Position numbers and translations under genes: made by a program. From Gemmatimonadota bacterium (lineage in GTDB: Bacteria; Gemmatimonadota; Gemmatimonadetes; Gemmatimonadales; Gemmatimonadaceae): a stretch of DNA of 64,000 nucleotides. The notes below the pieces were generated by a model that saw only the letters and a list, made by a program, of their open reading frames with translations, had not been told where the DNA came from and made no database searches. Location: NCBI GenBank assembly GCA_026387935.1, contig JAPLKU010000022.1:520-64519 (forward strand). The letters run 5' to 3'. This document shows, in pieces, positions 14,633 to 50,957 of this stretch (its first letter is position 1; each line of letters begins with the position of its first letter).

Positions 14633-14689
14633 CCGTACCCGAGGCTACGGCAGTTCTTCGCGGCCGGAAGTGGTTTCAACATCCATCGT

Positions 14690-14929: not shown

Positions 14930-14950
14930 GAAACCGCTTCTAGAGGCAAC

Positions 14951-15430
14951 TCACGGGTCGTAGGCGAGCGGAATGATGGTCACCTCGGCGCGGCCATTCA
15001 CTATACGCAAGCGTGCAACGGAAGGCTCCAGATCAAATCGCCGCGCTCCAGCAGCCCCCGGATTTATCACAAGCGTGTTCCCCACCTGCGCCACGAGTTG
15101 TCGGTGCGTGTGGCCATAGACAATCACCTCTGCGGCGTAGGTGGCCGCGAGCAACACCGGCGTCGGCCGGCGCACCTCGTGGCCATGACTGACGTGAATG
15201 CGCACACCGCCGATCGTCAGGTCGAGGGCGCTGACAAGACCAGGATGGTCCGATGGGTCGGTGTTGCCGTACACGGCCTGGACCGGTGCAATCACCGACA
15301 GCTCATCCAGAATCTCTTCGCCGCCAACATCGCCCGCGTGCAGAATCAGTTCGACACCCGCGAGCGCGGCGTGCACGTCTGGGCGGAGCAGCCCGTGCGT
15401 ATCAGAGATCAGGCCGATGTCACGCGACAT
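14951..15430 (-). CDS. YfcE/MJ0936-type metallophosphoesterase
   Basis: The motifs LISDTHG, HAGD, GNTD and SHGH occur in canonical order. Confidence 0.8.
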   Translation of the reverse strand: MSRDIGLISDTHGLLRPDVHAALAGVELILHAGDVGGEEILDELSVIAPVQAVYGNTDPSDHPGLVSALDLTIGGVRIHVSHGHEVRRPTPVLLAATYAAEVIVYGHTHRQLVAQVGNTLVINPGAAGARRFDLEPSVARLRIVNGRAEVTIIPLAYDP

Positions 15431-15436
15431 AGGGAC

Positions 15437-16974: not shown

Positions 16975-16978
16975 CGCG

Positions 16979-18460
16979 TCAGCGACCGCCGAGCCCGAGC
17001 GATGGCCAGATGGCGTCGACACGCGCCTTCGTCGCGGCATCCATCTCGATGACGTCTGGCCAGTTTCTCGTAAATCCTTCCTCGGGCATCTTCTTGGTAC
17101 CGTCGAGCCCGAGCTTTGAGCCGTACGTAAATGTGCGGCTCGAGTGATCGAGGACGTCCACCGGACCCATCGTAAACCTGGCGTCACGCTCGGGGTCGAT
17201 GTTGTTCAGCGCCACCCACCACGCCTCCTGCGGGTTGCGCACGTTGACCCAGGCGTCCACGATCACGAGCACCTTGGCGAGCGACATCAGTCCGGCGCCC
17301 CAAAGCGCATTCATCACCTTGAACGCGTGCCCCGGGAACTCCTTCTTGATTGAGACGAATACGAGGTTGTGGAATATCCCTTCGGCCGGCATGTGGTAAT
17401 CCACGATTTCCGGCGTAGTCAGCTTCAGCAGCGGGAGGAAGATCCGCTCCGTCGCGTGCCCGAGGTAGAAATCTTCCATCGGCGGCCGGCCAACGATGGT
17501 CGTGGCGTACACGGCCTTCTTCCGCATCGTCACCGCAGTGACATGCACCTGCGGATAGAGATCGGCCTCTGAGTAGAATCCCGTGTGATCGCCGAACGGG
17601 CCTTCGGTAACCAACGCCTCGCTCGGATCGATGTATCCCTCGATGACAAACTCCGCATCGGCGGGGACTTCGAGATCACAGGTGACGGCTTTCGCGAGGT
17701 GGACCGGTGCCTTGCGCAGGAATCCGGCGAAGATGAACTCGTCCACGGTCGGCGGGAGCGGTGCGCTTGCCGAATAGACCGATGCGGGATCGGCACCGAT
17801 CGCGATCACGACTTCCATCTTCTCGCCACGCTCGGCCATCTCGCGCCAGTGCGCCGCGCCAACCTTGTGGCGTTGCCAGTGCATCGCGAGCGTGTTCTTG
17901 GACAGCACCTGCACCCGGTACATCCCGACGTTTCGAATGCCGCGCTTGGGGTCCTTGGAGATCACCATCGGCAGCGTGATGTACGGCCCACCATCGTGCG
18001 GCCAGCAGGTAATGATCGGAAGCTTCCGCAGGTCGATGTCGCCATCGCGCCAGACAATTTCCTGGCAGGAGGGCGTACCACTCTTCATGCGCGGCGGGAA
18101 CTTCGCGACTTCGAGAAGCCGTGGGAGCAGCGACAGCTTTCCGCGAATGCCTTCCGGGACCTTGAGGTCGAGCAGCTGCGTGATGCGGGCGCCATGCTCA
18201 TCGAGATCCTTCACCCCCAGCGAGAGCGCCATGCGCGACATCGAGCCGAAGAGATTGATCGCCACCGGATACGCGGACTTCGAGCCGTCGTCGAGAATCA
18301 CGTGCTCGAACAACAGCGCCTTCCCGCCGCCGGGCTGCTTCATTACGCGATCAGTAATCTCGGCGAGCTCGAGCTTTGCACGCACGGGCTGCGTGATGCG
18401 CACCAGTTCGCCGGCGGCGTCGATCGCCGAAATGAATTCAGAGAGGGTATCGAGCGTCAT
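16979..18460 (-). CDS. UbiD-family (prenyl-FMN dependent) decarboxylase
   Basis: ATG 18460 overlaps the upstream stop (ATGA). Length and sequence are typical of UbiD (ITCWPHDGGPYITLP). Confidence 0.9.
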   Translation of the reverse strand: MTLDTLSEFISAIDAAGELVRITQPVRAKLELAEITDRVMKQPGGGKALLFEHVILDDGSKSAYPVAINLFGSMSRMALSLGVKDLDEHGARITQLLDLKVPEGIRGKLSLLPRLLEVAKFPPRMKSGTPSCQEIVWRDGDIDLRKLPIITCWPHDGGPYITLPMVISKDPKRGIRNVGMYRVQVLSKNTLAMHWQRHKVGAAHWREMAERGEKMEVVIAIGADPASVYSASAPLPPTVDEFIFAGFLRKAPVHLAKAVTCDLEVPADAEFVIEGYIDPSEALVTEGPFGDHTGFYSEADLYPQVHVTAVTMRKKAVYATTIVGRPPMEDFYLGHATERIFLPLLKLTTPEIVDYHMPAEGIFHNLVFVSIKKEFPGHAFKVMNALWGAGLMSLAKVLVIVDAWVNVRNPQEAWWVALNNIDPERDARFTMGPVDVLDHSSRTFTYGSKLGLDGTKKMPEEGFTRNWPDVIEMDAATKARVDAIWPSLGLGGR

Positions 18461-19251
18461 GCTTTTTCCCCAACGTGAAGCGCGGCGATCCCAAACGTCA
18501 GCGCGCGCCATGAGACATTGATGAATCCGGCCGTTCGCATGCGATCGGCGAGTAGGTCGCGATCTGGAAAGTTGGCGACCGATGCGGGCAAGTAGCGGTA
18601 TGCCGTGGCGTGGCCGCTGACGAGCCCGCCGATGAGCGGCAGTATCTGCCGGAAATAGAAGAGATAGGCCGCGCGAACCGGAGCGAACGACGGCGTCGAG
18701 AATTCCAGGATCACGAAGCGCGCTCCCGGCGAAAGCACTCGTGCTACTTCGCGGAGCGCCTCGTCCAGGCCGGCCACGTTGCGAATGCCGAATGCCACGA
18801 TGGCGCCGTCACACTTGGCGTCGGCCATAGGCAGCGACAGCGCATCGGCAACGACGGGATCGATCCGATTCGGTGGCCCCTTCCCCCGCCCGGACCGCAG
18901 CATCGGTTCGGCGAAGTCGGCCGCGAGCACGCGACCGGAAAACCCTGCAGTGGACGCCAGCGCAGCAGAGACGTCGAGCGTGCCGGCACAGAGATCGAGG
19001 TAGGCACCGGCCGGTCGCCGCGACCAGCCAAGCGCCGCGATGGCCGAGCGGCGCCAGAGCCGGTCGATTCCGAGGCTGAGGACCCTGTTGAGCAGGTCGT
19101 AGCGCGGGGCAATATCGGAGAAGATGCGCTGCACATACGCGCGTTTCTCCGGCCCGCCTTTGGCGGCTGCCGTGGCGGCCGCTGTAGCGGCGGCTGTAGC
19201 GGCAGTTTCCGCCCCCCGGGCGTTTACAACGTCGATTTCTGCACTTGCCAT
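18457..19251 (-). CDS. ubiE: demethylmenaquinone/ubiquinone C-methyltransferase
   Basis: The start is ATG 19251. It has the YVQRIFSDIAPRYDLLNRVLSLG motif and the SAM-binding LDLCAGT. The N-terminal extension contains ATAA repeats. Confidence 0.85.
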   Translation of the reverse strand: MASAEIDVVNARGAETAATAAATAAATAAAKGGPEKRAYVQRIFSDIAPRYDLLNRVLSLGIDRLWRRSAIAALGWSRRPAGAYLDLCAGTLDVSAALASTAGFSGRVLAADFAEPMLRSGRGKGPPNRIDPVVADALSLPMADAKCDGAIVAFGIRNVAGLDEALREVARVLSPGARFVILEFSTPSFAPVRAAYLFYFRQILPLIGGLVSGHATAYRYLPASVANFPDRDLLADRMRTAGFINVSWRALTFGIAALHVGEKA

Positions 19252-19307
19252 GAGAACCTGCAAGTTGCCCGTGCGTGGGGGGCCGGGCAAGTTTCGACCA
19301 GACCAGC

Positions 19308-19910
19308 ATGGCGCCCACGCCCGATCTCTCGAACGTCCCGGACGCAGATGTCGTCGCCCTCGCCCAGCACGGGCGCGAGGACGGCTTTCGTGAACTCGTG
19401 CGCCGGTACGAGCGCCCGGTGTTCTCGCTCATCTTCCGCATGGTGCGCGACAGTGCGTCGGCCGAAGACCTGGCCCAGGACACGTTCATCAAGGTTCTGA
19501 ACCACATCGACAAATACCGGCCAGAGTTCAAACTCTCCAGCTGGCTCTTCAAGATCGCGCACAATGTCGCGATCGATCACCTGCGCCGCCGCCAGCTCGA
19601 CACGATCTCCATGAGTGGGTCGCCGCACGCAGGCAGCGAGGCAGAGATCGCAGCCACCTCGTTCGAGATCGCGAGCGGCGAAGAGAGCGCGCTCGACCAG
19701 ATGGAGGCGCGCGAACTCGGCTCCACCATCGAAAAGGCGATCGGCACGCTGAGGCCGGAGTACCGGTCGTGCATCATGCTCCGGCATGTCGAAGGTCGCT
19801 CCTACGAAGAAATCGCGGCCACGCTCGACCTGCCCCTCGGTACGGTCAAGACCTACATCCACCGCGCTCGAATTCAGCTCCGAGAGCAGTTCGAACATCT
19901 CCGGGAATGA
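19308..19910 (+). CDS. ECF-type RNA polymerase sigma factor
   Basis: The start is ATG 19308. Region 2 (FRELVRRYERPVFSLIFRMV...DLAQDTFIKV) and region 4 (SYEEIAATLDLPLGTVKTYIHRAR) are recognisable. Confidence 0.85.
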   Translation: MAPTPDLSNVPDADVVALAQHGREDGFRELVRRYERPVFSLIFRMVRDSASAEDLAQDTFIKVLNHIDKYRPEFKLSSWLFKIAHNVAIDHLRRRQLDTISMSGSPHAGSEAEIAATSFEIASGEESALDQMEARELGSTIEKAIGTLRPEYRSCIMLRHVEGRSYEEIAATLDLPLGTVKTYIHRARIQLREQFEHLRE

Positions 19911-20015
19911 TACCGAACGCATCCCGAAATACTTCTGCTTGCCAACGGCCAGCTGCCTGCGGTTACCGTGAAACCCCGTATTCCCCCGCCCCGTACATCT
20001 TTTTGTGAGGATCGA

Positions 20016-35474: not shown

Positions 35475-36746
35475 GTGGCTGACGAATCACTGAAGGTTTC
35501 GCTTGAAGTCGCCGACGCTGTCGCGCGCGTGGTAGCAGCGATCTCCTGTCTTTCCGTCGAGCGCGTGCCGTTGTCGAGCGCACGAGGCCGCGTGCTGGCA
35601 TCACCAGTCGTATCGCGCGTGTCGCTGCCTCCCTGGGACAACTCGGCGATGGATGGCTACGCTGTTCGCGCGGAAGACATCGCCGCGATTCCGACCACGC
35701 TCCGTGTGCTGGAAACCGTCGCGGCAGGACAATTTCCAACGCAGCCGGTGGCGAAGGGCACGGCGATTCGCATCATGACCGGCGCGCCGACTCCAGCCGG
35801 CGCCGATACGGTCGTTCGCGTCGATGACACCGACGGCGGACGCGAGCGCGTCGTCGTTCGTCTCAACCGCGATGCGCGAAAGAACGTGCGTCCGCGCGGC
35901 GAGGATATCATTGCGGGCCGCGAGGCCCTCGCCGCCGGCACGACGCTTGGGCCCGCGCAGAGGGGCGGGCTGGCGGCGGTCGGCACAATCGACGTGGACG
36001 TTTACCGAGTGCCACGGGTCGCGATCCTCACCTCGGGCGACGAGTTGGTCACCACCGATCGGTTTGACGAAGTGCTGGCCGGCAAGAAGATCGTGTCGTC
36101 CAACAGTGTCACGCTGCACGAGCTCGTGCGCGACGCCGGCGCCGAACCGGTAGACCTCGGCATTGCCGCCGACACGCCGGCCTCGCTGCGTGAGCATCTC
36201 GCGCGCGCCGTGGCGCCGCCGGGTGCAGACCTGATCATCACGTCTGGCGGGATTTCCGTGGGCGAATTCGATTTCATGCGTCCTGTGCTCGCCGAACTCG
36301 GCGCGTCGCTCGACTTCTGGCGTGTGCGGATGCGTCCTGGAGCGCCAATTGGATTCGGCATGCTCGGCACAACGCCCTGGCTTGGGCTTCCGGGGAATCC
36401 CGTGTCGACGATGGTCACCTTCGAGCTCTTTGCGCGACCGGCGATTCGAAAGATGCGCGGCCACGCAGCACTCTTTCGGTCGCCAATTCCGGTCACTGTC
36501 GAGGAACCGATTTCGGTGAGTGTGGAGCTGACGCATTTCCTTCGCGCCGTGGTAACGCGGCACGACGACGGCCACCGCACCGCGCGGCTGACCGGTTCAC
36601 AAAGCTCGGGTATTCTCTCGTCCATGGCGCTCGCGAATGCGCTCGTGATCGTGCCGCGCGGCACGTTGCAGGTGGCGGCAGGCGCGACGTTGATGGCGAT
36701 TCCGCTTGGCGTGGAGGGCGCATTCGACGAGCGCTTCAGCGCGTGA
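35475..36746 (+). CDS. moeA: molybdopterin molybdenumtransferase
   Basis: The MoeA fold motifs PPWDNSAMDGYAV and IITSGGISVGEFD are present. Confidence 0.9.
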   Translation: MADESLKVSLEVADAVARVVAAISCLSVERVPLSSARGRVLASPVVSRVSLPPWDNSAMDGYAVRAEDIAAIPTTLRVLETVAAGQFPTQPVAKGTAIRIMTGAPTPAGADTVVRVDDTDGGRERVVVRLNRDARKNVRPRGEDIIAGREALAAGTTLGPAQRGGLAAVGTIDVDVYRVPRVAILTSGDELVTTDRFDEVLAGKKIVSSNSVTLHELVRDAGAEPVDLGIAADTPASLREHLARAVAPPGADLIITSGGISVGEFDFMRPVLAELGASLDFWRVRMRPGAPIGFGMLGTTPWLGLPGNPVSTMVTFELFARPAIRKMRGHAALFRSPIPVTVEEPISVSVELTHFLRAVVTRHDDGHRTARLTGSQSSGILSSMALANALVIVPRGTLQVAAGATLMAIPLGVEGAFDERFSA

Positions 36747-37441
36747 CGGAACCCGTGGCTTCGCTCGCCGACTTGCCCTTTGAACTCGCGGCGCTCGATC
36801 ACCGACATGTGATGGCGTTCACCGACGTGGTGCTGCCGAGTGGGCCGGTGCATCTCGAACATCCGCGCAACGCGGACGATCTGATTACGGAAGCGGATTA
36901 CGTGATGGACGAACGGCTGCCCTACTGGGCCGACCTCTGGCCGTCGGCGCTGTCGTTCGCGCGAATCTTTCCCGACATCACGCCGCAAGCCGGGCGCATG
37001 CTCGAACTGGGCTGCGGCCTCGGCCTCGTGACCATCGCGGGACTCCGCGCCGGCCATGAGGTGACCGCGACGGACTACTACGACGACGCCCTGCTCTTCA
37101 CGCAGCGAAACGCGATTCGCGTCACCGGCAAAACGCCGGAGACGCGTATGGCCGACTGGCGACACTGGCCGACCGATCTTGGCCGATTTGACCTCATCGT
37201 GGCTTCCGACATTCTCTATGAGCGGTCGTACGCGCCGTTGGTGGCGGGGATTATTGAGTCCTCACTCGCGCCAGGGGGTGTCGTGTTCGTGGCGGATCCG
37301 GGCCGCATCGGCATGGATGACTTTCGCGCCGAGTGCGCGGAGCGAAACTTGGTGATCGGCGAGAAACTGAAGGTTCCATATCAGGATGGAGCAATCAATC
37401 AGGTGATCACGATTCACGAGATCCGACGGGAAGCGATGTGA
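36743..37441 (+). CDS. class I SAM-dependent methyltransferase (protein-lysine methyltransferase-like)
   Basis: GTG 36743 overlaps the moeA stop. It has PYWADLWPS and the SAM motif LELGCGLGLV. Confidence 0.7.
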   Translation: MTEPVASLADLPFELAALDHRHVMAFTDVVLPSGPVHLEHPRNADDLITEADYVMDERLPYWADLWPSALSFARIFPDITPQAGRMLELGCGLGLVTIAGLRAGHEVTATDYYDDALLFTQRNAIRVTGKTPETRMADWRHWPTDLGRFDLIVASDILYERSYAPLVAGIIESSLAPGGVVFVADPGRIGMDDFRAECAERNLVIGEKLKVPYQDGAINQVITIHEIRREAM

Positions 37442-37556
37442 TCCTCGAGCAGGCGGTGCGCGCGGCGGCGAATGCGCCCGCGGAGCCGAAGATCAGGGCC
37501 GGATCATCATGAACAGTGCGCCGCCAAGGGTTGCGAGACGACCAATCGGATAGGCA

Positions 37557-37787
37557 GGGGTCTCGGTACTATCGTTGGAAACGGACAACCGCCGGAGGGA
37601 TCGGACAAGGCCCGGATACAACAACGACAACGACAACCACAACGACAACCACAACGACGACTGACCGGGGAACTACCACCACCGCTCGCGCTCGCGAGGT
37701 AGTCGCAGTTCCCCCCAAAGAGCGTCCGTGCCGAAGAGCTCCGATTCGTCCGGTACTTGTCCGCCACCCGCGATAGCGCCGAGACCC
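37557..37787 (+). repeat. copy B of the inverted-repeat-bounded structured repeat family, with an expanded (CAACGA/CAACCA)n tract
   Basis: The left end is GGGGTCTCGGTACTATCG and the right end is CGCGATAGCGCCGAGACCC. The central stem is GGGGAACTACC(37667)...GGTAGTCGCAGTTCCCC(37714). The right end stops 4 nt before the stop codon of the minus-strand gene. Confidence 0.75.
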
Positions 37788-37791
37788 GTCT

Positions 37792-40700
37792 TTACGGCTT
37801 TTTCGGCGGCACCACCGGCTTCGGATCGTGCGCGTCGATCTTCTTCGTGTTCACCTGCAGCGCGTCCTCGTTCACCCAGTACTTCGGGCCAAACGGAACA
37901 GCCCTCGGCCAGATCTGGTCGAGCGACATGCCGTCATAGAGCATTCCGCCCTTCATCACGTACTGCATGTCGATCGTATTACGGATGTTGTCGAGTGGAT
38001 TCTTGTTGAGCACCATCAGATCGGCAAGCTTGCCGACTTCGATCGACCCGAGATCCTTGTCGGCGCCGAGGAAGCGCGCGCCGTGCAGGCTGGCCACTTC
38101 GAGAGCGCCCATGTTGCCCAGCGCGCTTGCGCCCATCCACACTTCCCAGTGCGGCGCGATGCCATGGTGTTCACCATGTGACCCGATGGCGCCCCAGCCG
38201 CCTTCGGCGATGATGTCGGCCATCGCCTGCGCAACAAGCGGATAACTGTAGTCCGTGGCAGGACGTTGCCAGCGCACGCGCGTTTGCGGCACGAGCATGC
38301 GCCACGGAAACCAGAGGCGCTGCTTCGGATCCTTCCACACGTCGCTTTCGCCAAACCAGTACTCGATGCTCCACGCACTCGGCCCCGCGACGACGAGCGT
38401 GGGCGAGTATGTGGCTCCGGCCTTTCCGAGGAACTTGGCGCCGTCGGAGTACATCGGGACTTCGCTGAACGAGTGTTCCCACCCGGTCTGTCCGTCCATG
38501 ATGAATCCGAGGTCCTCCATGAAGTGCCCGCCCTCGGAGGTCTCGTTGATTCCGACGGTGCGCGATGCTTCGGCCATCCACTGCCGCTGATCGCGGCGGG
38601 GCTGGGCGTATTGCTTGATGGACACGGCTCCCCAATCGGCCATCTTGCGGACGGCGGCGAGTGCGTCGGCCGGATTGTTCATCTCGTTCGCGCGTGCGGC
38701 GTCGCCGGCGGTGATATTGTCGCCCGTGCTGAATCCGCGCGGCCCGATCATCTCGCCAGCCTCGATGAGCTCGGCAGTCGGGAACATGTTCTGTGAGTAC
38801 ATCGACACGTCGGTCGTCGTGGTCACGCCGTAGGCCAGGTAGATGGCCTGCTCGTAGTCGTGCGTGGGGCGCATGCCTCGCCACTCGCGGTAATGGTGCG
38901 CGTGCATGTCCACGAAGCCCGGGATGATTGTCTTGCCGCTTGCATTCACTACCCTGCCGACGCCAGCCGTCGGGCAGTTGCCGACGCAGGTGATGCGCCC
39001 GTCCTTGACCACGACCGTCCCGCGCTCGATGACCTGGCGCTTATTGAGCGTCACGATGCGCGCGTTCGTCAGGGCGATGGAGCCGCTGGCGACGGAGCCG
39101 CGTGGTACCGACACGGCGAGCTTCACCGTATCCGTCTTGCCGTTTTCCATGTGATGCACGAAGAACCGCTCGCCGCTGCCGTACTCAAGTGTGTTCTTGT
39201 CGCGCCAGCGCGGAAACAGTCCGCCGTCACGCGTCAGCTGGGTGACCGGAAACTGGCCGCGTCGCTTCTCGATTCTTTGTACTTCGCCGCCGAGTCCGCC
39301 GTATGCCATGGGCGCGACGTACACGTTGTCGCCTTCCTGGAAGGCGACGAATTCGCCGGTGGGCGAGGGGACAATTTCGTCAGCCGCCGGGAAGGAGAGG
39401 TCTTCCTGCTTGTCGCTCCCGTCCAGCTTCGACGACATGAGGGCCGTACCGCCACCACGCCCACCAGCGCCCGCCTTTTCATCAATCCAGAACACCCGAC
39501 CATCGGGACCGAACGAGGGACGCACCAGCTGGCGGCGCGCTTCGTTGCCCACCGAGGCGCCGGACGGGCGCAGCACCTTCGAGAAGGCGATGCCGGTGTC
39601 ACCGGCGGTGCCGGCATTCGCATTGAGCGATACCAGGTCGTACCAGGAGTTGTGCGTCAGCGTGCGCTGGCGTGCCGTAGCACCTTCGCCGCGCGCGACG
39701 ACGATGAGCCGGCCATCGGGACTCCAGACCGGATCCACATAGTCACCGGATTCACTCGTCACGCGCTGCGGAGTGCCGCCAGTGGCCGCCACTGTCCAGA
39801 CGTGACCGCGCGCCGTGTCCTCCCAGGTCACGAAGGCGATGGAGCGGCCATCGGGGCTCCATGTGGGCGCGTACTCCAGTGGTTGGAAGGCAGCGTCTGT
39901 GAGGCGCTTTGGCGTGCCCGTGGCGCCCGGTTGCGTGTAAATGCGACCGACGGACTGGAACGCGATCGTCTTTCCATCTGGCGACGCGCTCGGCCAGCGG
40001 AAGAACTTCGCGGCCACGGGTCCATCGGCGATCCGGAATTCCTTGCGCGCCATTTCTGAAATGGTGCGGTGCACCGTCGCGGTGTACGGAACGGTGGTGA
40101 CGGCCTTCGTTGCGATATCGAGACGACGGATCTTCCCACCCTGCGCGATGACGAGACTCTTCCCGTCCTTCGACCATTTGTAGCGCGCCAACACGCCGAG
40201 CGTCTTGGAACCCGAGGTGACCATCGGATCGATCGGATCCATGACCATGCGTTCCGCGCCGGTCTTCATGTCGCGCAACCAGAGTGCACTGCGCGGCCCG
40301 TACTTGTGGCCCTTGTACTCGAGCAGTCCGTCCGGAATCTGGCGGCCAAAAGCGAGCCATCGCCCGTCCGGCGAAATCTCCGGTACCGCGCCACCACCAG
40401 AGGAGAAGCGTCCCGCAGCCGCGCCAACGCTTTCGCCATTGGTAATGTCGACCGTTTCGCCGTTCTTCATTTCAAACCGCCGGAGCTGAATGGAGCCGCT
40501 GAGCATCTCCTTCGTGTCCGTGGTCATCGTGACCTGGTAGTACAGGTACTTCCCGTCACTCGACACGCTCGGCCACGACGGCGCGCCGTTGCCGCCCGCG
40601 CCGCGACCACCGCCAGCACCGACGAGGGACACTCCCTGGCCACCGTCCTTGTGATACATCCACAGCCCGCCGCCGGCTCCAGCGCCGCCGTCACCGCCGC

Positions 40701-41202
40701 CGCGACCGCCTTTGCGCACGATGATGTAGTTGCCGTCAGGCGTCCACGCCGGTTCGACTGCCGTGGCGTTGAGGTCGCTGAACACCGCGTGCGGATTCGA
40801 GCCGTCGGCGTTCATGACCCAGAGGTTGTACTGACCACGGCGGTCCGTGATGAACGTGATCAGCTTGCCGTCGGGCGAGATACGCGGCTGGAAGTTCAGC
40901 GCTACGCCGCTGTTTTGCGTGAGCACCGTGGCAGCGCCGCCCGTCGCGGGCACCCGATAGATGTGCCCGAGCAGATCAAATGCGACCCAGCTGCCGTCAG
41001 GGGAGATGTCGACCGATGTCCAGGTTCCTTCGGACGTCGTGAAGTCGATGTCGCGTGTCTTGCCGCGTGCGAGCGTGACGTCCCAGGCGGCGCGCCCACC
41101 TCCGCCACCTTGGGCATCGGTGGCGCCGCCCCGCTGCGCGAAGAGGGGCAGCGCAGAGACGAGCATTGCGACGACGACTGCGGATCGGGTTCGGATAGAC
41201 AT
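37792..41202 (-). CDS. secreted TolB-like beta-propeller / amidohydrolase fusion protein
   Basis: The start is ATG 41202, with signal peptide ...LPLFA|QRGG. It has repeated PD40-type blades (SPDG...) and a C-terminal amidohydrolase metal motif IPGFVDMHAHH. Confidence 0.8.
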   Translation of the reverse strand: MSIRTRSAVVVAMLVSALPLFAQRGGATDAQGGGGGRAAWDVTLARGKTRDIDFTTSEGTWTSVDISPDGSWVAFDLLGHIYRVPATGGAATVLTQNSGVALNFQPRISPDGKLITFITDRRGQYNLWVMNADGSNPHAVFSDLNATAVEPAWTPDGNYIIVRKGGRGGGDGGAGAGGGLWMYHKDGGQGVSLVGAGGGRGAGGNGAPSWPSVSSDGKYLYYQVTMTTDTKEMLSGSIQLRRFEMKNGETVDITNGESVGAAAGRFSSGGGAVPEISPDGRWLAFGRQIPDGLLEYKGHKYGPRSALWLRDMKTGAERMVMDPIDPMVTSGSKTLGVLARYKWSKDGKSLVIAQGGKIRRLDIATKAVTTVPYTATVHRTISEMARKEFRIADGPVAAKFFRWPSASPDGKTIAFQSVGRIYTQPGATGTPKRLTDAAFQPLEYAPTWSPDGRSIAFVTWEDTARGHVWTVAATGGTPQRVTSESGDYVDPVWSPDGRLIVVARGEGATARQRTLTHNSWYDLVSLNANAGTAGDTGIAFSKVLRPSGASVGNEARRQLVRPSFGPDGRVFWIDEKAGAGGRGGGTALMSSKLDGSDKQEDLSFPAADEIVPSPTGEFVAFQEGDNVYVAPMAYGGLGGEVQRIEKRRGQFPVTQLTRDGGLFPRWRDKNTLEYGSGERFFVHHMENGKTDTVKLAVSVPRGSVASGSIALTNARIVTLNKRQVIERGTVVVKDGRITCVGNCPTAGVGRVVNASGKTIIPGFVDMHAHHYREWRGMRPTHDYEQAIYLAYGVTTTTDVSMYSQNMFPTAELIEAGEMIGPRGFSTGDNITAGDAARANEMNNPADALAAVRKMADWGAVSIKQYAQPRRDQRQWMAEASRTVGINETSEGGHFMEDLGFIMDGQTGWEHSFSEVPMYSDGAKFLGKAGATYSPTLVVAGPSAWSIEYWFGESDVWKDPKQRLWFPWRMLVPQTRVRWQRPATDYSYPLVAQAMADIIAEGGWGAIGSHGEHHGIAPHWEVWMGASALGNMGALEVASLHGARFLGADKDLGSIEVGKLADLMVLNKNPLDNIRNTIDMQYVMKGGMLYDGMSLDQIWPRAVPFGPKYWVNEDALQVNTKKIDAHDPKPVVPPKKP

Positions 41203-41283
41203 GGCCACGGTCTCGGGTGGGGAGTTTCGTCCCAAAAGGTGCAGCGAAGCCGACGTTCGCGCGAGTATTATTCGCTCCCGCCC

Positions 41284-42450
41284 ATGAACTTCGACTCAAC
41301 TCCTGTCCTGCCGCACGGCTTTCGCTGCGCGAGCCGCAATGTCGGCCTCAAGCCGGTCGCCAAGGATCTGGCGCTCTTCGTGAGTGATGTGGATTGCGCG
41401 GCCGCCGTGCTCTTCACCAGAAATCAGTTTCCGGGCGCGCCGGTGTTGCTTGGGCGTGAAACGATCAAGGGCGGCGTACTCCGCGCCGTAATCGTGAACA
41501 GCAAGGTGAGCAACGTCGCGACGGGCGAGGCCGGGCTGCAGTTCGCCCGCCGCATGGCTGCTGGCGCTGCGGCTGAAGTGGGCACCGATGCCAGGAAGGT
41601 GCTGGTGAGTTCTACCGGCGTCATTGGCGTGGCGCTCCCGATCGAGAAGATCGAAGCCGGTATGCGCGGCATGGCCGCCGACTTGCAGGCTGACCCGATG
41701 CCCGGTGCGCACGGCATCATGACGACGGATACGCATCCGAAAGTGTTATCCGTGCGCGTGGGCCAGGCAACGATCACCTGGATTGCCAAGGGCGCGGGCA
41801 TGATCGAACCGAACATGGCGACGATGCTGGCCTACATCTTCACCGATGCCACGTTCGATGCGCCGACGCTCGATGGCATGCTTCGCCGCGCCGCCGACGT
41901 CTCGTTCAACATGCTCTCAATCGACACGGACACGAGCACATCGGACACCTGCGCGTTGCTGGCGAATGGCATGGCCGGCCCAACGGACCCCGCGTCATTC
42001 GAGGCAGCGCTCGTGGCAGGCTGCATTCGCATGGCCGAGATCATTGCAAGAGACGGCGAAGGGGCGAAGCACCTGATCAAGGTGCGCGCGCGCGGCGCCA
42101 AGTCTGTTGGCGAAGCGCGGACCATCGCGAAGTCGGTCGTGAACTCGCCACTGGTGAAAACCATGGTCGCCGGCGCCGATCCGAATGTGGGCCGCTTGCT
42201 CATGGCGATCGGGAAGTGTTTCGATGTCACGATCGACCGCTCGAAGACCGACGCGTGGATTAACGGCCACCAAGTGGTTGCCGGTGGCGTGCGAGGCGCG
42301 TTCGACGATGACGTCGTGCGAAAGGCCCTCGGCAATGAGGTCGTGACGATCGAAGTTGCGCTTGGCGTCGGGACCGGCGACGCGACCGCGTTTGGGTGTG
42401 ACCTCACGCAAGGCTACATCGACGAGAACGCGGCGTACTACTCTAGTTGA
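41284..42450 (+). CDS. argJ: bifunctional glutamate N-acetyltransferase / amino-acid acetyltransferase
   Basis: The start is ATG 41284 (MNFDSTPVLPHGF). The autocleavage-site region is PNMATMLAYIFTDA. Confidence 0.9.
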   Translation: MNFDSTPVLPHGFRCASRNVGLKPVAKDLALFVSDVDCAAAVLFTRNQFPGAPVLLGRETIKGGVLRAVIVNSKVSNVATGEAGLQFARRMAAGAAAEVGTDARKVLVSSTGVIGVALPIEKIEAGMRGMAADLQADPMPGAHGIMTTDTHPKVLSVRVGQATITWIAKGAGMIEPNMATMLAYIFTDATFDAPTLDGMLRRAADVSFNMLSIDTDTSTSDTCALLANGMAGPTDPASFEAALVAGCIRMAEIIARDGEGAKHLIKVRARGAKSVGEARTIAKSVVNSPLVKTMVAGADPNVGRLLMAIGKCFDVTIDRSKTDAWINGHQVVAGGVRGAFDDDVVRKALGNEVVTIEVALGVGTGDATAFGCDLTQGYIDENAAYYSS

Positions 42451-45224: not shown

Positions 45225-45418
45225 CACCGACTTTGGACGCGGATCAAACGGATGTGAACGACGATTAGGCGGATACGGCAACGACAACTGCAACAATAGG
45301 GGGAACTGCAACCACATCGGGCGTGGTCGCAGTTCCCCCAATCAGTTGAGGCCGCCGGCCCTGAACAATCCGGACAAGTCCGGCCGTTGTCCGATTCCCG
45401 CGCTAGCGCCGAGACCCC
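45225..45418 (+). repeat. copy C of the structured repeat family (left arm degenerate)
   Basis: It shares GGATACGGCAACGACAAC and the central hairpin GGGGGAACTGCAACCAC(45299)-7 nt-GTGGTCGCAGTTCCCCC(45339). The right end CGCGCTAGCGCCGAGACCCC stops 5 nt before the minus-strand stop codon. Confidence 0.7.
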
Positions 45419-45423
45419 TGCTC

Positions 45424-48400
45424 CTACATCGCGATCTTCGCGTCGGTGATCGGCTTCAGCTTCCCTGCCCACTGCTTGTTGAAGTCGGCAATCGTCTTGG
45501 TCATCAGCTCGGCGAACTTCGCTTTCGCGGTCTTGAGATCCTGCTCTATGTCGCCGAGCACCTGCACAGCCGCGTCGGTCGGCCGGTGGTCGGCGCCGCC
45601 GGCCACGTCACCTGCGCCGGTGCCGACGTCGCCGTTCAACCAAATGAGCTTCATGAAGATCTTCATCGTCTCGACGTAGTACTTATCGTCGCTCATGAGG
45701 TCGGAGTTCGTCAACATGAGCAGTTCCACGTCCTTGATCTTGCCATCAAGCGTCAGCAGCGCGGCCTTCGCATCGGGCTTGGTCGTATCCGCCTTCGCGA
45801 TGTCCTGCACCTGGCGCCGCATTACCTCGATGCGGTTGATCATCTGGACCGTTGCGTTCATGTCGTCACGCACTTTCGTCTGCGCCTTGGTCGAGGCGAC
45901 GATGTCAGCCACTGGCTGCTTGACATCCTTATCAAGGAGCACGGCGAACGGGCGAGTCTGCGACTTGCCGGCAACGGTCACGCGCACGCTGTACTTGCCG
46001 GGAGCCGCGAGTGGACCGTTCCGTTGCGGACCATCGATGCCCCAGTGGATGATGGGCCGAGTGTCCTTGCCCGCAAACCGGGGATCCTCCCAGATGTGCG
46101 GCTGCTCCGGTGGCGTGTGCCGCATTTCCACCTGCATCGGCGGCTCGTAGCGCAGGTTCCACGCGACCTTGTTCAGCCCCGGACGCCCGCGGCCGTTCAT
46201 CGTGCGGATCACTACGCCCGCCGAGTCGAGTACCTCCAGCTTGATCAATCCGTCGGTCACAGCCTTCAGGTCGAACTGGAAGTCCGCTCGACCGCTTCGG
46301 GCCTCACGGTAACCGGTGCGCGGCGCGAAGAGGTGGAAGTCAGCCGCCGCCGCGGCCTTGTCCTTTTCTTCGAGCGGTGCAATGTCGCGCAGGATGAAGA
46401 CGCCGCGTCCGTACGTCGACACGACCACATCATGCCACTCCTTCGGCGTCTCGATCCAGCTCACGGGGGCAGGCGGAAGCCCCGTCTTGAAGTGCGTCCA
46501 GTTCGCGCCGTCGTTCATCGAGTAGTAGAACGCGTGCGCCGTGCCGGCGAAGAGCATTCCCTTCCGGTTCGGGTTTTCACCCACCGACATCACGTAGTCG
46601 AGCGGATGTCCGTTCGGCAGATCACCCGTGACCTCCTTCCACGTCTTGCCGAAGTCTGTTGTCTTGTAAATGTGCGGCGATCGATCGTCGACCATGTGGT
46701 AGTCGGCCGTGAAATACGCCGTGCCCGCGTCGTGCCACGACGGCGTGATCTGCCGGATCGTGCCCAGCGGCTTCATTCCGACGTTCTTGGTGACGTCGTT
46801 CCACGTCGTGCCGCCATCGCGTGTGTTCCACACCTTGCCGTCGTTCGTGCCGGCCCAGATCAGCCCCTTCCGGATCTGGCTCGGCGCAATAGAGAACACC
46901 AGCGCGCCGTAGAACTGGCCAAGATTGTCGCCAACCACGCCGCCCGAGTTGACGATCATCGACTTGTCGCGTGTCGAGAGGTCGGGACTGGTCACCTTCC
47001 ACGTCTGCCCGCCATTGGACGTCTTGAAGATCACCTGACAGCCGTAGTAAACCGTGTTGTGGTCGAAGGGATCAATCGCAAGCGGCGGCGTCCAGTGGCA
47101 CCGGTACTTGATATCGTCGGGCGGCGAGTCAAGCGTGATGCCAAAGGGGGCCACCGAGCGTGCCAGCCCCGCCTTGTTGTCGAACCGCGTCACCTTGTTG
47201 CCGTAGCAGCTGGCCCAGATGATGTCGGCGTCGGTCGGGTCCGCGAGCGTGAAGCCCGACTCGCAGCCGCCGATTCCATGCTGCCAGGTGCCGACGCTCG
47301 CGTACGCGGCGTTGCCCGAACCGCCTGCACCACCACCGCGACCGCCGCGCCCACCCACGCCTCCCTGAGGCGGAATCGGCCCGAAGTCGATTGTCGTCGA
47401 GTCGACGGGCGCACGCGCGGCCGTCGAGTCGGCGACGCCGCTCGCGCCGCTCCCACTGCGGCCACCGCGGCCACCAAGACCGCCCGCTGCCGCAGAATCC
47501 GGAACGGGCGGGCCGAAGCCGCCACGCCCGCGTCCACCGCCGCCCGGAGGCGCCTCGACCACGTTGCTCGGTCCGCGAATCGTGCCATTGTCCTGGCGAT
47601 TCGTCAGCACCCAGTACGGAACCTGCTTGTCGGTCGAGACGTGATACATCTGGCCGTTGGGCAGCGTGACCGTGCCCGACTGTGCACCGTGCGTAGATGT
47701 GACCCGCGCGCCGGCATCGTTCGTGAGACCGAAGTGGTCGGCGTTAACTGGATCCCACCAGATGTCGTGATTGTCGCCGCCCCACGGCCGCTCGACGAAG
47801 GTCTTGGCTCCGTCGGTGGACTGGAAGAACGTCGAGCTCGCCAGAAGAATCTCATCGGGGTTCGACGGAGAGACCTCGAGGCGCGTGTAGTAGCCCGCGC
47901 GCCCGATCAGCGGTCGCTGCCAGTTCCACACCTTCCACGTGACTCCAGCGTCGTCTGAGCGCCAGACGGATCCCTGATCGGCGGTCTGCATCAGCGCGTA
48001 CACCCGCTTGCCATTGCTCGGCGCAACGGCCACGTCCACCTTGCCGACACCCGCCTTGGGCAGGCCATTCGCGAGGCGGGTCCAGGTTTCGCCCGCGTCG
48101 TTCGTCTTCCAGACGCCGCTGCCCGGGCCGCCGCTGTACATCGCCCACGTGGCCATCTTCACTTCCCACGTGCCGGCATAGAGGACGCGCGGATCCTGCT
48201 TGTCCATCGAGAGGCCCGAGCAACCTGTTTTGTCGTCGACAAAGAGCACGCGGCGCCAGCTGTTGCCGCCGTCGCCGGTACGGAACACTCCGCGCTCCTG
48301 CTGCGGCCCCGTTACACGACCGATTGCGCAGACATACACGATGTCGGGGTTGGTCGGATGGATGATGACCTTCCCGATCCGGCCGACTTCCCTGAGGCCC

Positions 48401-48837
48401 ATGTTCTTCCAGGTTGTTCCGGCATCGGCCGACTTGTAGACGCCGTCGCCGGCGATGTCCGCGTCGCGAATCACCCACGCCTCGCCGGTCCCGGCCCAGA
48501 CGATGTCGTGGTTCGATTGCGAGACGGCGAGCGCACCGATCGCCTGCACACCGGTCTCGTCAAAAATCGGCACGTTGGTCGTACCGTTGTTGGTCGACTT
48601 GAAGATGCCGCCCGAGGCGCTGCCGAAATACCAGGTATTGTTGTCACCAGGCACGCCGGCGATGGCGGAGACTCGGCCGCCGTCGGTCGGCCCAATGAAC
48701 TGGAACCAGAGCGAGTCGGCGCGAACGGGCGCGGTGGGCGCCGCGGTGGGCTGTTGGGCGGAGAGAGGCACGCCCGAGGCTGCGCCGACAGAAGCGAGCA
48801 GAGCGACGGATGCGATTAGGCGGGGGCGGAGCGACAT
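45424..48837 (-). CDS. secreted BNR/Asp-box repeat protein (sortilin/VPS10- or GH74-like double propeller)
   Basis: The start is ATG 48837, with signal peptide ...VPLSA|QQ. It has many S-x-D-x-G-x-T-W boxes (SADAGTTW, TGDGGNSW, TNDAGETW, SDDAGVTW, STDGAKTF, SNGGQTW, TRDGGTTW, TTDFGKTW, MNDGANW). Confidence 0.8.
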   Translation of the reverse strand: MSLRPRLIASVALLASVGAASGVPLSAQQPTAAPTAPVRADSLWFQFIGPTDGGRVSAIAGVPGDNNTWYFGSASGGIFKSTNNGTTNVPIFDETGVQAIGALAVSQSNHDIVWAGTGEAWVIRDADIAGDGVYKSADAGTTWKNMGLREVGRIGKVIIHPTNPDIVYVCAIGRVTGPQQERGVFRTGDGGNSWRRVLFVDDKTGCSGLSMDKQDPRVLYAGTWEVKMATWAMYSGGPGSGVWKTNDAGETWTRLANGLPKAGVGKVDVAVAPSNGKRVYALMQTADQGSVWRSDDAGVTWKVWNWQRPLIGRAGYYTRLEVSPSNPDEILLASSTFFQSTDGAKTFVERPWGGDNHDIWWDPVNADHFGLTNDAGARVTSTHGAQSGTVTLPNGQMYHVSTDKQVPYWVLTNRQDNGTIRGPSNVVEAPPGGGGRGRGGFGPPVPDSAAAGGLGGRGGRSGSGASGVADSTAARAPVDSTTIDFGPIPPQGGVGGRGGRGGGAGGSGNAAYASVGTWQHGIGGCESGFTLADPTDADIIWASCYGNKVTRFDNKAGLARSVAPFGITLDSPPDDIKYRCHWTPPLAIDPFDHNTVYYGCQVIFKTSNGGQTWKVTSPDLSTRDKSMIVNSGGVVGDNLGQFYGALVFSIAPSQIRKGLIWAGTNDGKVWNTRDGGTTWNDVTKNVGMKPLGTIRQITPSWHDAGTAYFTADYHMVDDRSPHIYKTTDFGKTWKEVTGDLPNGHPLDYVMSVGENPNRKGMLFAGTAHAFYYSMNDGANWTHFKTGLPPAPVSWIETPKEWHDVVVSTYGRGVFILRDIAPLEEKDKAAAAADFHLFAPRTGYREARSGRADFQFDLKAVTDGLIKLEVLDSAGVVIRTMNGRGRPGLNKVAWNLRYEPPMQVEMRHTPPEQPHIWEDPRFAGKDTRPIIHWGIDGPQRNGPLAAPGKYSVRVTVAGKSQTRPFAVLLDKDVKQPVADIVASTKAQTKVRDDMNATVQMINRIEVMRRQVQDIAKADTTKPDAKAALLTLDGKIKDVELLMLTNSDLMSDDKYYVETMKIFMKLIWLNGDVGTGAGDVAGGADHRPTDAAVQVLGDIEQDLKTAKAKFAELMTKTIADFNKQWAGKLKPITDAKIAM

Positions 48838-48896
48838 GCGTGTGTGATCCTCAGGGTCATGGTCAAACAGACCTCGGAAGATACGGAACCGCCTTG

Positions 48897-50957
48897 CTAC
48901 ACCGCTAACCGCCCGGCGACTACCTCGGCAATGTCCAGCACGGTAACATCGGCATCGCGCGCCTTCACGCTGTCGGCCAGCATCGTCATGCAGAAGGGGC
49001 ACGCCACAGCGATCGTCGTCGCACCGGTCGCGAGCGCCTCCTCGGCACGCTCCGCGTTGATTCGCTTGCCGCCTTCAGCCACATGTTCTTCCATGAACAT
49101 CCGGCCGCCGCCAGCACCACAGCACATGCCGCGATCGCGCGAGCGCGGCATTTCCACGAGTTCCATGACGGGCAATGCGCGCTTGAGGGCTTCGCGCGGC
49201 GCGTCGTACACCTCGTTGTAGCGACCGAGGTAGCAGGAGTCGTGGTAGGTGAACTTGCTCACCGGTTCGTGGAGATCAGCGCGGAGCGGCACCTTCCCTG
49301 CCGCGAGCAACTCTTCGATGAACGTCGAATGGTGGATGACGTCGAAGTGCCCACCCCACTGAGGGAACTCGTTGCCCATCTGGTGGAAGCAGTGCGGGCA
49401 GGCGGTCACCACCTTCGTCACCGCGTAGGTATTGAGGACACCAACGGCGTCCTTCGCGAGCATCTGGTAGAGGTACTCGTTGCCCATGCGTCGCGCGGGA
49501 TCGCCGTGGCACTTTTCTTCCTGCGCCAGAATCGCGAACCGCACGCCGGCAGCCTTCATGATCTTCGCAAACGCGACGGTAGTCTTCTTCGCGCGATCGT
49601 CAAACGAGCCCATGCAGCCAACCCAATAGAGCACGTCGGGCTTCTCGCCGCGGCCATGCAGTTCAGCCATCGTCGGGATGTCCATGCCGTCGGCCCACTT
49701 CGCGCGGTCGGCCGGGTCGAACGCCCAGGGCGAACCCTTCTGCTCCATGGACTCGAACGCCGGCAGGATCTCTTCCGGGAAGCGCGATTCCCCGAGGACG
49801 AGGTTGCGGCGCAGTTCGTTGATCACGGAGAGCTGATCAATGGAGACTGGGCATTCGGTCACGCAGGCGCGGCACGAAGTGCAGGCCCAGAGTTCGTCTT
49901 CGGTGATGTAGGTATCGAGCAGCGCGCGCGCGGTGGTTGCTCCGGCGGTTGTGACGGCGGTGCCGCCGGCACTCCGCCCAATCAGTCCGATCCCAGCGGC
50001 CGCCGATTTCTCTTCCAACCGCTCGCGGACGTTCACCATGATCTTGCGCGGGCTCAGCGGTTTGCCCGTGATGTTCGCCGGACACACGCTCGTGCAGCGG
50101 CCGCATTCCGTGCAGGCGAATCCATCGAGCAAGGATTTCCAACTCAGCTGCTCAACGTCCTTTGCGCCGAAGACTTCGAGGTCGCCTTCGAGGTCCATCG
50201 CCGACATGACGCCAACCTGCCCAGGCCCACTCGTGTTCGAGAGGTACACGTTCGGCAGCGACACCACGACGTGCAGGTGCTTCGAATACGGCAGATAGTT
50301 CAGGAAACTGAGCACCAGCAATCCGTGCGACACCCAGAACAGGCGCTCAAGTGTGAGTGCAGCACTTGGCGAGACGACCACCGATGACAACGCGGCAATC
50401 ACCGCCGAGATCGGCCGGAGCAAGCCAATACCGGGTTCCGGATTGGCGACCATCGCCATCGCCTGATCGCCGAACATCGTGATCATCAGCGCGCCGATCC
50501 ACGACAGAATCAACAACGGGTCATTCGGATGCGTCTCGGCGCCCATCAACCGCTTCACCCGCTTGGTGATGCGGCGGAAAAGCGCAAACGACACCGCGAG
50601 CAGCACCAGCGCGCCCCAGACGTCCTGATTGATCGTGTAGAAGCGGTACAGCACGCCCGGCAGGACCTTCGCGAAACTGAACGACGGGAACACACCGGCG
50701 ACAAGAAACTCGATCGTGCCGGCGGTCAGCACGCAGAAGCCCCAGAAAATCGCCGCGTGCATCGGGCCCGCAACCGAATCGCGGAAGATCTTCTTCTGGA
50801 AGATTCCGATCGAGAGCAGGTTGCCCAACCGTGCGCCGACATCGCTCCAACGGGAGTCGTCGAGTCGGCCCATGCGCAGTTCAAGGATGAGTCGCCACGC
50901 GTTCCAGGCAAACAAGCCGAACGCGGCGACTACGACGAGCGCAAAGACGATGTGCAC
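48897..50957 (-). CDS. membrane-anchored Fe-S oxidoreductase (heterodisulfide-reductase-like CCG domains; EtfD-like)
   Basis: It has N-terminal TM helices, two 4Fe-4S ferredoxin motifs ([24 protein letters not shown]), and C-terminal cysteine-rich CCG-type motifs (..CCGAGGG..). It lies directly downstream of etfBA. Confidence 0.75.

Follow-up and report, generated by a model that had tools for sequence, protein, structure and literature searches.

A 64,000-nt stretch of Gemmatimonadaceae DNA (assembly GCA_026387935.1, contig JAPLKU010000022.1, positions 520 to 64,519; hereafter the window) carries a structured repeat, designated copy B, at 37557-37787 on its plus strand. Copy B is a multi-tier imperfect palindrome of 231 nt and a full-length member of a repeat family. 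The family is specific to freshwater Gemmatimonadaceae, dispersed and non-coding, and unrelated loci carry it in full, short, half, arm-only or core-only form. Copy B is probably a palindromic repeat similar in kind to repetitive extragenic palindromes (REPs), the bacterial interspersed mosaic elements (BIMEs) and the enterobacterial repetitive intergenic consensus (ERIC) sequences, and also to MITEs, the miniature transposable elements with inverted repeats. On this account, copies accumulate and decay behind genes, and a slippage-prone tract within copy B has expanded in this lineage.

Copy B and its repeat family

Copy B runs from a GGGG at 37557 to a GACCC that ends at 37787. It matches the family profile, which was built from 21 non-redundant full copies, over profile positions 2-206 (nhmmer, E = 2.9e-32; span 37558-37786). 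The initial annotation of this DNA, made from the letters alone, had given copy B the architecture of a second repeat in the window, copy A. The two are indeed full-length members of one family, and all strings quoted from copy B are present where they had been placed. The parts of copy B are as follows.

37557-37574, plus strand: left arm as delimited in the initial annotation, GGGGTCTCGGTACTATCG
37557-37577, plus strand: left arm, 5' side of the outer stem, GGGGTCTCGGTACTATCGTTG, with 3 differences from the consensus GGTCTCGGCGCTAGCGCGG (alignment A2, columns 1-21)
37582-37617, plus strand: 5' side of the second tier, CGGACAAC-CGCCGGA and then GGGATCGGACAAGGCCCGGAT, based on family helices 2 and 3 and on the minimum free energy (MFE) fold
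37604-37610, plus strand: GGACAAG, a string quoted in the initial annotation
37618-37661, plus strand: hexamer tract, a CAAC microsatellite of 44 nt (7 units plus 2 nt)
37667-37714, plus strand: core hairpin, GGGGAACT (37667-37674) ... AGTTCCCC (37707-37714)
37733-37766, plus strand: 3' side of the second tier, GAAGAGCTCCGATTCGTCCGG-TACTTGTCCG-CCA (alignment A2, columns 225-262)
37756-37762, plus strand: CTTGTCC, likewise quoted
37767-37787, plus strand: right arm, 3' side of the outer stem, CCCGCGATAGCGCCGAGACCC, with the exact family motif CCCGCGnTAGCGCCGAGAC
37769-37787, plus strand: right arm as delimited in the initial annotation, CGCGATAGCGCCGAGACCC

GGACAAG and CTTGTCC had been proposed to pair with each other in the second tier. 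Both strings exist, but the partner was wrong: the MFE fold and the family alignment both pair CTTGTCC with the first GGACAAC (37583-37589). Family helices 2 and 3 are GGA/UCC and GCCGGA/UCCGGC, and they are paired in 97% of cells.

The arms of the family are near-invariant (GGTCTCGGCGCTAGCGCGG / CCGCGCTAGCGCCGAGACC) and enclose a core GGGGGAACT...AGTTCCCCC, with variable tiers between them. The 5' half of the consensus consists of the arm GGTCTCGGCGCTAGCGCGG, tier 2 with CGGACAAC-nGCCGGA, a variable stretch closing in 2-2.5 CAACNN units, and TGACT. The 3' half continues with the core GGGGGAACTGCAACGAC...GTCGTTGCAGTTCCCCC, AAGT...GCCGAAGACATCCGG, tier 2 with TCCGGC-nTTGTCCG, and the arm CCGCGCTAGCGCCGAGACC. 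The whole is a near-perfect palindrome, and the orientation of each element was set from its internal asymmetry, which leaves four lineages ambiguous. Comparison covered 30 distinct family cores. The core module is also found alone (L102, 5878-5932; loci other than the window bear L numbers) and within different arms (L107, 13452-13594), and the palindrome extends outward in some copies.

A strict core-plus-arm pattern, run against one genome for each of 185,579 species, has a single true match, which lies in a Gemmatimonadetes metagenome-assembled genome (L004, 2231-2436). The remaining five matches are chance occurrences inside coding sequences of unrelated taxa. A scan of Joint Genome Institute (JGI) metagenomes for the right-arm motif CCCGCGnTAGCGCCGAGAC gave 94 stretches, a sample that is ascertained on the right arm. 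Among them, about 30 copies are full (189-245 nt) and six are short forms (113-125 nt) made of arms and second tier with no core; the rest include many half copies that keep the right arm alone with the core present or absent, and chance matches in coding sequences. At least 12 copies come from a single metagenome. For proteins encoded beside the copies, the best matches bear the names Gemmatimonadaceae or Gemmatimonas.

The window sequence is present in about 20 lake, river and drinking-water metagenomes. In three of these metagenomes the right-arm word reaches 18-22x the single-copy depth, and the copy number estimate rests on this depth ratio together with 64 kb of sequence.

The termini GTCTCGGC...CGCGnTAGCGCCGAGAC recur in at least three further subfamilies of about 115-130 nt, whose interiors are unrelated (L080, L085 and L045; L020, L044, L048, L066 and L097; L050, L090, L022 and L069). 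Beside the element in L101 (9854-9920) and L099 (about 5300-5345), the end of the right arm (GCCGAGAC and about 15 nt more) is duplicated in tandem two to three times. Such tandem duplication of the arm end may be the footprint of a process that copies or resolves the ends.

A profile search of the window returned exactly three members, A, B and C, and no further copy. All three are intergenic and in the same orientation; the two others are listed below.

14690-14883, plus strand: copy A, a full-length member (nhmmer E = 7.3e-38; profile span 14691-14881)
About 45240-45421, plus strand: copy C, a half copy in which the left arm is missing and the hexamer tract, core and right half are kept (profile span 45240-45416)

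Copy A lies within a composite of about 14664-14944 that adds an outer stem GAAGTGGTTTCAA/TTGAAACCRCTTC and a side hairpin GTGACTCGATGCATGAnGCGTCGAG. The same outer stem and side hairpin occur at an unrelated locus (L099, 5070-5400), and they therefore form an extra tier in some family members. The outer stem of copy A is also given as GAAGTGGTTTCAA/TTGAAACCGCTTC. Copy C ends 5 nt from the TAG of a sortilin-like gene (45424-49002, minus strand). The segments that the initial annotation had quoted for comparison with the tract of copy B are correct both for copy A (GGCAACTGAC) and for copy C (GGCAACGACAACTGCAACAATAG), but the latter turns out to be a half copy lacking the left arm.

Orthologous sites, gene context and transcription

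Copy B occupies site B, where the stop codon of an amidohydrolase gene faces the MoeA operon, which ends with a methyltransferase gene. Its neighbourhood is as follows.

36743-37441, plus strand: methyltransferase gene (Pfam Methyltransf_23, Methyltransf_25), which closes the MoeA operon and converges on the amidohydrolase gene
37438-37553, plus strand: gene remnant, consisting of N- and C-terminal pieces of a 242-266 aa gene, with TAG at 37551-37553, 3 nt before copy B
37788-37791: GTCT, the 4-nt spacer between the right arm of copy B and TTA at 37792-37794
37792-41235, minus strand: PD40/Tricorn-like amidohydrolase gene (Pfam PD40, Amidohydro_1, Amidohydro_3), with its TAA at 37792-37794

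The distance of 4 nt from copy B to the TAA of the amidohydrolase gene, as given in the initial annotation, was thus confirmed, and the minus-strand mRNA does enter GGGTCTCGGCGCTATCGCGGG 4 nt past its stop codon. The amidohydrolase open reading frame (ORF) encodes 1147 aa counted from the first start codon, and its homologues have 1124-1142 aa; the orthologues carry the names Gemmatimonadaceae/Gemmatimonas. Synteny of the methyltransferase gene is kept in L101, L102 and L107.

The full element is present at site B in the window and in L036 and L018. In L101, where the neighbouring protein is 89% identical, the site holds a 40-nt arm-only hairpin, GCGTCTCGGCCCTATCGG-TGGA-CGCCGATAGCGCCGAGACC. 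This hairpin is best read as a deletion derivative because its CTATCG/CGATAG variant and its TGGA loop match sequence specific to site B. L107 and L108 (89%) have the same core within different arms (CGGCGGGGACGCGGA...). In L102 (83%, synteny kept), a gap of 20 nt retains TAGCGTTGCCGAGAC (listed also as GCCGAGAC) as the sole remnant. Synteny is broken in L103 and L104 (80% and 77%), and no arm is found there.

The two other sites have comparable histories. Site C holds the core hairpin alone in L102; in L101 the gene neighbours differ, and the gap contains a classical bidirectional terminator-like hairpin (5375-5452). At site A, L109 and L112 carry a Ser/Thr kinase-TPR gene of about 1.9 kb between a UvrC-like and a Metallophos gene. 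Its product has 624 aa in L112 (3718-5592); in L109 the gene is broken into parts of 328 and 284 aa. In the window, the composite copy A stands in its place, and CTACGGCAGTTCTTCGCGGCCGG (14634-14662) represents the last ~20 nt of the gene. The sites show deletion, decay and module exchange.

Tandem repeats occupy the equivalent convergent gap in two further cases: the 14-nt unit CCTCGGAYCTCTCA is present three times in L112 (3629-3717), and a 13-nt unit is present in at least seven copies in L111 (3570-3650), followed by an assembly gap.

The gene next to copy B has itself been partly lost. Its function is unassigned (242-266 aa), and it is intact in L101 (13496-14224) and L107 (13635-14435), where it lies between the methyltransferase gene and the element site. 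The internal deletion seen in the remnant at 37438-37553 is polymorphic among close strains, because L018 shares it and L036 retains 499 nt more of the gene.

Gene context across the family was determined for 33 independent elements after orthologous duplicates were collapsed. Genes were called by a home-made codon log-odds model trained on these loci, which reproduces the known genes of the window. Gene 3' ends are strongly preferred, with 44 flanks against 13 that face 5' ends (binomial p = 4.7e-5). Among the 24 gaps with both neighbours called, 14 are convergent, 9 tandem and 1 divergent. The distance to the stop codon has a median of 33.5 nt and is at most 20 nt in 15/44 cases. The 4-nt spacing of copy B is ordinary for the family because 6/44 distances are within 7 nt. 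The right-arm side faces a 3' end in a ratio of 26:4 vs 18:9 for the other side, a difference that is not significant (Fisher p = 0.11), and both orientations relative to the upstream gene are found among the elements.

Other family members are co-transcribed with neighbouring genes, because RNA reads join flanking genes to the elements. A lake metatranscriptome read (run X27) matching 14850-15000 exactly joins the 3' end of the Metallophos gene to the right arm of copy A. In run X27, one read passes from a gene 3' end 64 nt into the L086 element (3496-3646), and a 789-nt contig holds yet another copy. In run X26, the sole contigs in window positions 1-20000 cover 14797-14958, which takes in copy A's right half together with the spacer next to it. 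DNA carry-over could account for this signal. No RNA contig covers copy C, and the CAAC tract is matched by unrelated low-complexity RNA contigs only.

A trans-acting enzyme that recognises the conserved arms presumably spreads or maintains the family, and it would be encoded outside the window: the ~45 genes of the window are all housekeeping genes, with no transposase, integrase or RAYT-like gene (RAYT, REP-associated tyrosine transposase) among them. Copies would then persist where insertion is tolerated, decay by deletion and swap modules. As to consequences for the host, the hairpin of about 100 bp predicted to form in the RNA of the 3' untranslated region (UTR) would most likely serve the two convergent genes as an insulator or 3'-end barrier. 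With the stem beginning 4 nt past the stop codon, terminating ribosomes would have to open the hairpin base. This point is argued by analogy with REPs near stop codons in E. coli.

Several results weigh against a mobile palindromic repeat as the explanation of copy B. No direct repeat of 3 nt or more, and hence no target-site duplication, was found at any offset in 22 copies. Within ~0.8 Mb of family loci, a limited sample, there is no arm pair 0.4-7 kb apart, and neither an autonomous parent element nor a transposase was seen there or in the window. No clean empty site was found at A, B or C among orthologues that are 71-90% identical, which offer remnants, other modules and broken synteny only. 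Because target-site duplication, clean filled/empty pair, parent element and transposase are all lacking, it is from dispersal only that we infer mobility. The invariance of the right arm is partly an ascertainment effect, the right arm being the scan pattern. A consensus scan of 37200-38100 for a hairpin plus U-tract called no intrinsic terminator at copy B. The RNA data are sparse, unstranded, at contig level and free of 3' ends, with DNA carry-over possible, and three RNA-type runs contain no RNA contig over copy B. The X26 signal could also come from a separate, stable RNA that has its own function. Finally, at the L099b element, which lies in a tandem context, one exact X27 read is wholly within the element (5141-5291) and another lies just past its left end and extends into the next gene (4964-5112), which suggests read-through rather than efficient termination.

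The bias towards gene 3' ends and convergent gaps could alternatively mean that copy B is a host-selected bidirectional terminator or 3'-end stabiliser between convergent genes, whose similarity to other copies is kept by selection or gene conversion. Relatives hold other hairpins at like junctions, such as the one at L101 5375-5452. The element at site B apparently predates the divergence of lineages with 83-89% identity in the neighbouring protein, and RNA contigs stop or pile up around the right half of copy A. However, half, arm-only and core-only copies and full loss at orthologous sites indicate that the intact structure is needed at no site. A terminator with a U-tract was not called by the scan described above; the U-rich stretch CCGUCUUUACGGCUUUUU that follows the right arm on the plus strand is not a canonical terminator tail. 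RNA lies on both sides of L099b, one copy sits in a divergent gap, 13 flanks face 5' ends, and the element at L101 9699-9862 sits in a 5' region. Moreover, termination does not need near-identical 20-bp arms at unrelated loci. Selection by the host for termination or stabilisation is therefore an unlikely origin of the family.

Predicted fold and the hexamer tract

The predicted fold of copy B is, for either strand, far more stable than that of shuffled sequences. The MFE of the plus-strand RNA is -105.7 kcal/mol (z = -6.4) and that of the minus-strand RNA is -117.6 kcal/mol (z = -3.7); 0/200 shuffles are as stable in either case. Across the family, the outer helix of 17 bp is near-invariant and 96% paired, and a consensus structure of 35 pairs is paired in 95.4% of cells. 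The initial annotation had suggested looking for covariation in the stems. Compensatory variants do exist in the core, e.g. GCAAC/GTTGC vs GCCAC/GTGGC, and pairing in the apical core stem is slightly above that of shuffles (216 paired cells vs 206 +/- 4). However, two-sided change is seen in only 2/35 pairs, a number equalled by 430/500 shuffles, and the covariation score is 0.083 vs a shuffle mean of 0.071, with 12/500 shuffles as high. Because pairing reaches 95.4% with no excess of covariation, the stems are held by sequence identity. This pattern would fit recent copying, or recognition of the arms by a protein, better than a constraint on RNA structure.

Two further lines bear on a structured RNA. 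Rfam covariance models gave no match, either for the whole window at gathering score or for 37500-37850 at E <= 10, and a known RNA family was rejected on this basis. An attempt to read the strand of selection from G.U vs A.C mismatches was dropped as contradictory: the conserved tiers have 33 G.U to 16 A.C, and the whole element has 61 G.U to 101 A.C (p = 0.002).

The hexamer tract is a hexanucleotide microsatellite seeded by the 2-unit repeat of the family consensus, and its length changes by slippage between near-identical strains. It comprises A22 C17 G5 T0 (39% C, 11% G), in the units ACAACA, ACGACA, ACGACA, ACCACA, ACGACA, ACCACA, ACGACG and AC, and Tandem Repeats Finder (TRF) reports a period of 6 x 6.3 or of 12 x 3.2. 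Alleles were read from assembled metagenome contigs that carry the copy B locus with identical flanks (L036, L018); Logan contigs were uninformative, breaking at the tract. With a for ACGACA and b for ACCACA, the alleles are as follows.

L036: 26 nt, 4 hexamers, 'a b'
Window: 44 nt, 7 hexamers, 'a a b a b'
L018: 62 nt, 10 hexamers, '(a b) x 4'

Over 8.6 kb, L018 and the window share 99.57% identity, with the 18 nt added in the tract as the sole indel. L036 is 97.99% identical over 2.6 kb and has a tract shorter by 18 nt. The copy C orthologue in L017 has one additional CAACTG unit, and the copy A orthologue in L034 shows no indel across 5.3 kb. Tract length thus differs between copies and between strains, as the initial annotation had expected. 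A long CA tract is nevertheless no feature of the family: most copies carry 2-2.5 units (12-15 nt), copy A measures 10 nt here, and only the copy B locus, L081 (six GCAACT units) and L017 (three units) show expansion. The tract length itself is probably neutral. As a marker, the tract is a ready variable-number tandem repeat (VNTR) that separates strains more than 99.5% identical.

A separate tandem repeat lies elsewhere in the window: the heptamer GGTTGAC is repeated 6.4 times (a period of 14 x 3.2 is also called) at 4464-4508, at the end of a heptosyltransferase gene in the gap before maf. Beyond the amidohydrolase gene, an ArgJ gene is expected at ~41.3-42.45 kb on the plus strand by synteny with L101 and L102, inside a long ORF (40069-42450) that overlaps the start of the amidohydrolase gene. 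The mechanical ORF start at 40069 almost certainly lies too far upstream for the ArgJ gene.

The tract had been described as a C/A-rich, G-poor single-stranded loop typical of loading sites for Rho or other RNA-binding proteins. Its composition agrees with this description. In the plus-strand RNA, the predicted pairing probability of the tract is 0.44, 0.15 and 0.11 for the alleles of 4, 7 and 10 units, compared with ~0.71 for the rest, and the remaining fold is predicted to be the same in all three. In the minus-strand RNA, however, the GU-rich complement of the tract is predicted to be about half paired.

Copy B could accordingly be viewed as a structured RNA acting in cis, with the unpaired tract serving as a loading platform whose length tunes termination or decay of the convergent transcripts. 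Length polymorphism could serve as the tuning knob, a short CAAC-rich stretch of 2-2.5 units 5' of the core is conserved family-wide, and family members are transcribed. Against this, the long tract is peculiar to the copy B locus. Strains that are at least 98% identical differ freely in tract length (26, 44 and 62 nt) and show no other indel in 8.6 kb, which disfavours a constrained platform. Rho utilisation (rut) sites are typically ~70-80 nt of unstructured C-rich, G-poor RNA upstream of the termination zone, and 44 nt between strong helices falls below this length. Transcription of the abutting minus-strand gene would yield an mRNA with the GU-rich complement, and the CA-rich strand would be carried only by read-through from the methyltransferase operon. 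The missing covariation signal, the inconsistent G.U vs A.C bias and the occurrence of elements in both orientations relative to the upstream gene also argue against a platform. The data do not support loading by Rho or an RNA-binding protein, which we consider quite improbable.

The same low standing applies to a broader proposal, in which the family would go beyond selfish DNA and be a modular 3'-UTR device specific to Gemmatimonadaceae, with exchangeable nested hairpins that enter or displace one another where convergent genes meet. The hypervariable CAAC/GUUG tract would be a contingency switch whose length governs the loading of a factor (Rho, Hfq-like or other) and thereby tunes read-through or stability of the flanking genes from strain to strain, and the X26 fragment would be a processed stable product.

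There is practically no chance that the tract encodes poly-threonine in a small protein of 86 aa (ORF 37516-37776, plus strand): the frame is open, the tract becomes a run of Thr codons (ACA ACA ACG ACA...) and allele lengths are multiples of 3 nt apart, so that hexamer steps preserve the frame, but GC by codon position is 0.60, 0.69 and 0.56 vs ~0.65, 0.47 and 0.78 in real genes here, a mirror ORF of the same length lies on the opposite strand, copy A has no ORF across it, the site holds a 40-nt hairpin in L101 and a 20-nt gap in L102, and the ORF begins within the gene remnant.

Relation to known repeat systems

A palindromic repeat with a slippage-prone tract is familiar in kind, and the finding is useful rather than surprising. 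The searchable literature yielded no description of interspersed repeats in Gemmatimonadota, and the family seems to be the first such repeat described in this phylum; the class of bacterial interspersed palindromic repeats itself is known. Gemmatimonadota are abundant in lakes and soils and genetically little studied. The family breaks short-read assemblies: Logan contigs stop at the tract and at the right arm, and L110 and L111 end at the equivalent junction. It also marks places of gene loss and module exchange and aids the understanding of Gemmatimonadaceae genome dynamics. If long hairpins do shape mRNA 3' ends, the family would be relevant to gene expression in the phylum.

Several classes were considered and rejected. 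The start of copy B (GGGGTCTC) suggested a Tn3-derived miniature element (TIME), but most copies start nGGTCTC with no conserved GGGG, and neither a 5-bp duplication nor a 38-bp Tn3-type end is present. The attC site of integrons is an imperfect palindrome behind a cassette ORF, with RYYYAAC/GTTRRRY boxes, in a co-oriented array beside intI. The arms here have no such boxes, the convergent neighbours are housekeeping genes, and the window has no integrase. Context and motifs do not fit retron msr/msd or CRISPR. A plasmid or phage origin was dismissed after blastn gave no match for copy B in plasmids or for the composite copy A in phages.

TIRtrons are moderately abundant families seeded by RAYT-like 'TIRYT' transposases with long inverted repeats, notably in Acidobacteria (PMC3733652). 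By analogy, they would be a plausible model for a family with inverted arms of ~20 bp and no target-site duplications in a soil and freshwater phylum. However, no such gene is seen here, and the TIRtron motif GGGGWSAS does not fit the family arms (GGGGTCTC). MITEs, e.g. Correia/NEMIS of Neisseria, have been reviewed (PMC10969869). Like them, the family is non-coding, dispersed, co-transcribed and 100-250 bp in size, has terminal inverted repeats (the outer helix of 17 bp) and internally deleted variants that retain the termini, and could form long RNA hairpins. In contrast to MITEs, neither target-site duplication nor a cognate insertion sequence (IS) with the same termini was found, and the states seen at orthologous sites are full, arm-only, other arms, core-only and remnant, none cleanly empty.

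REP, BIME and REPIN (paired REP) sequences of Proteobacteria are mobilised by RAYT transposases (PMC3116915, PMC3733652), and a conserved GTAG (or CGTC) tetranucleotide at one end is a hallmark of REP/REPIN (PMC3733652). The present family resembles them in being extragenic, GC-rich, hairpin-forming and multicopy (three intergenic copies in 64 kb and an arm depth of 18-22x), in lying behind genes and between convergent genes where it is co-transcribed as 3' UTR, in the absence of target-site duplication, and in mosaic modules as in BIMEs. The ~40-nt arm-only form of L101 is REP-sized. However, REPs are units of 20-40 nt or doublets of ~100 nt, whereas the usual Gemmatimonadaceae copies are 110-245 nt (113-245 nt in the forms measured) with three to four nested tiers. 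The arms start (G)GGTCTCGG with no GTAG head and mostly have GGTC; CGTC is confined to a minority, with CGTCTCGG in L101, L060 and the L020/L044 subfamily only. No RAYT was found among the ~45 genes of the window, and the phylum is another one, Gemmatimonadetes being unmentioned in PMC3733652.

The family also shares its size and its internal insertion and deletion variants with the ERIC sequences, or intergenic repeat units (IRU), of enterobacteria. These are reportedly imperfect palindromes of at least 100 nt that occur in transcribed intergenic regions only, and they are said to have size variants produced by internal deletions and by insertions at fixed positions and to spread by a mechanism that is unknown. 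ERIC sequences are unrelated in sequence and belong to another taxon; unlike them, the Gemmatimonadaceae copies have arms far more conserved than the interior and an embedded microsatellite. For stop-codon-proximal copies such as copy B, REPs offer a further parallel, since those near stop codons reportedly affect upstream gene expression and mRNA stability.

The embedded microsatellite invites comparison with the BOX elements of pneumococci, boxA-(boxB)n-boxC, whose internal subunit is present in a varying number of tandem copies (PMC3049150). The variable unit of BOX is a 45-nt module, whereas a 6-nt microsatellite varies here; the sequences are unrelated, and the BOX host is Gram-positive. 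What the two have in common is a modular, intergenic and transcribed element with a stable fold, in which a variable internal repeat number makes length differ by copy and by strain.

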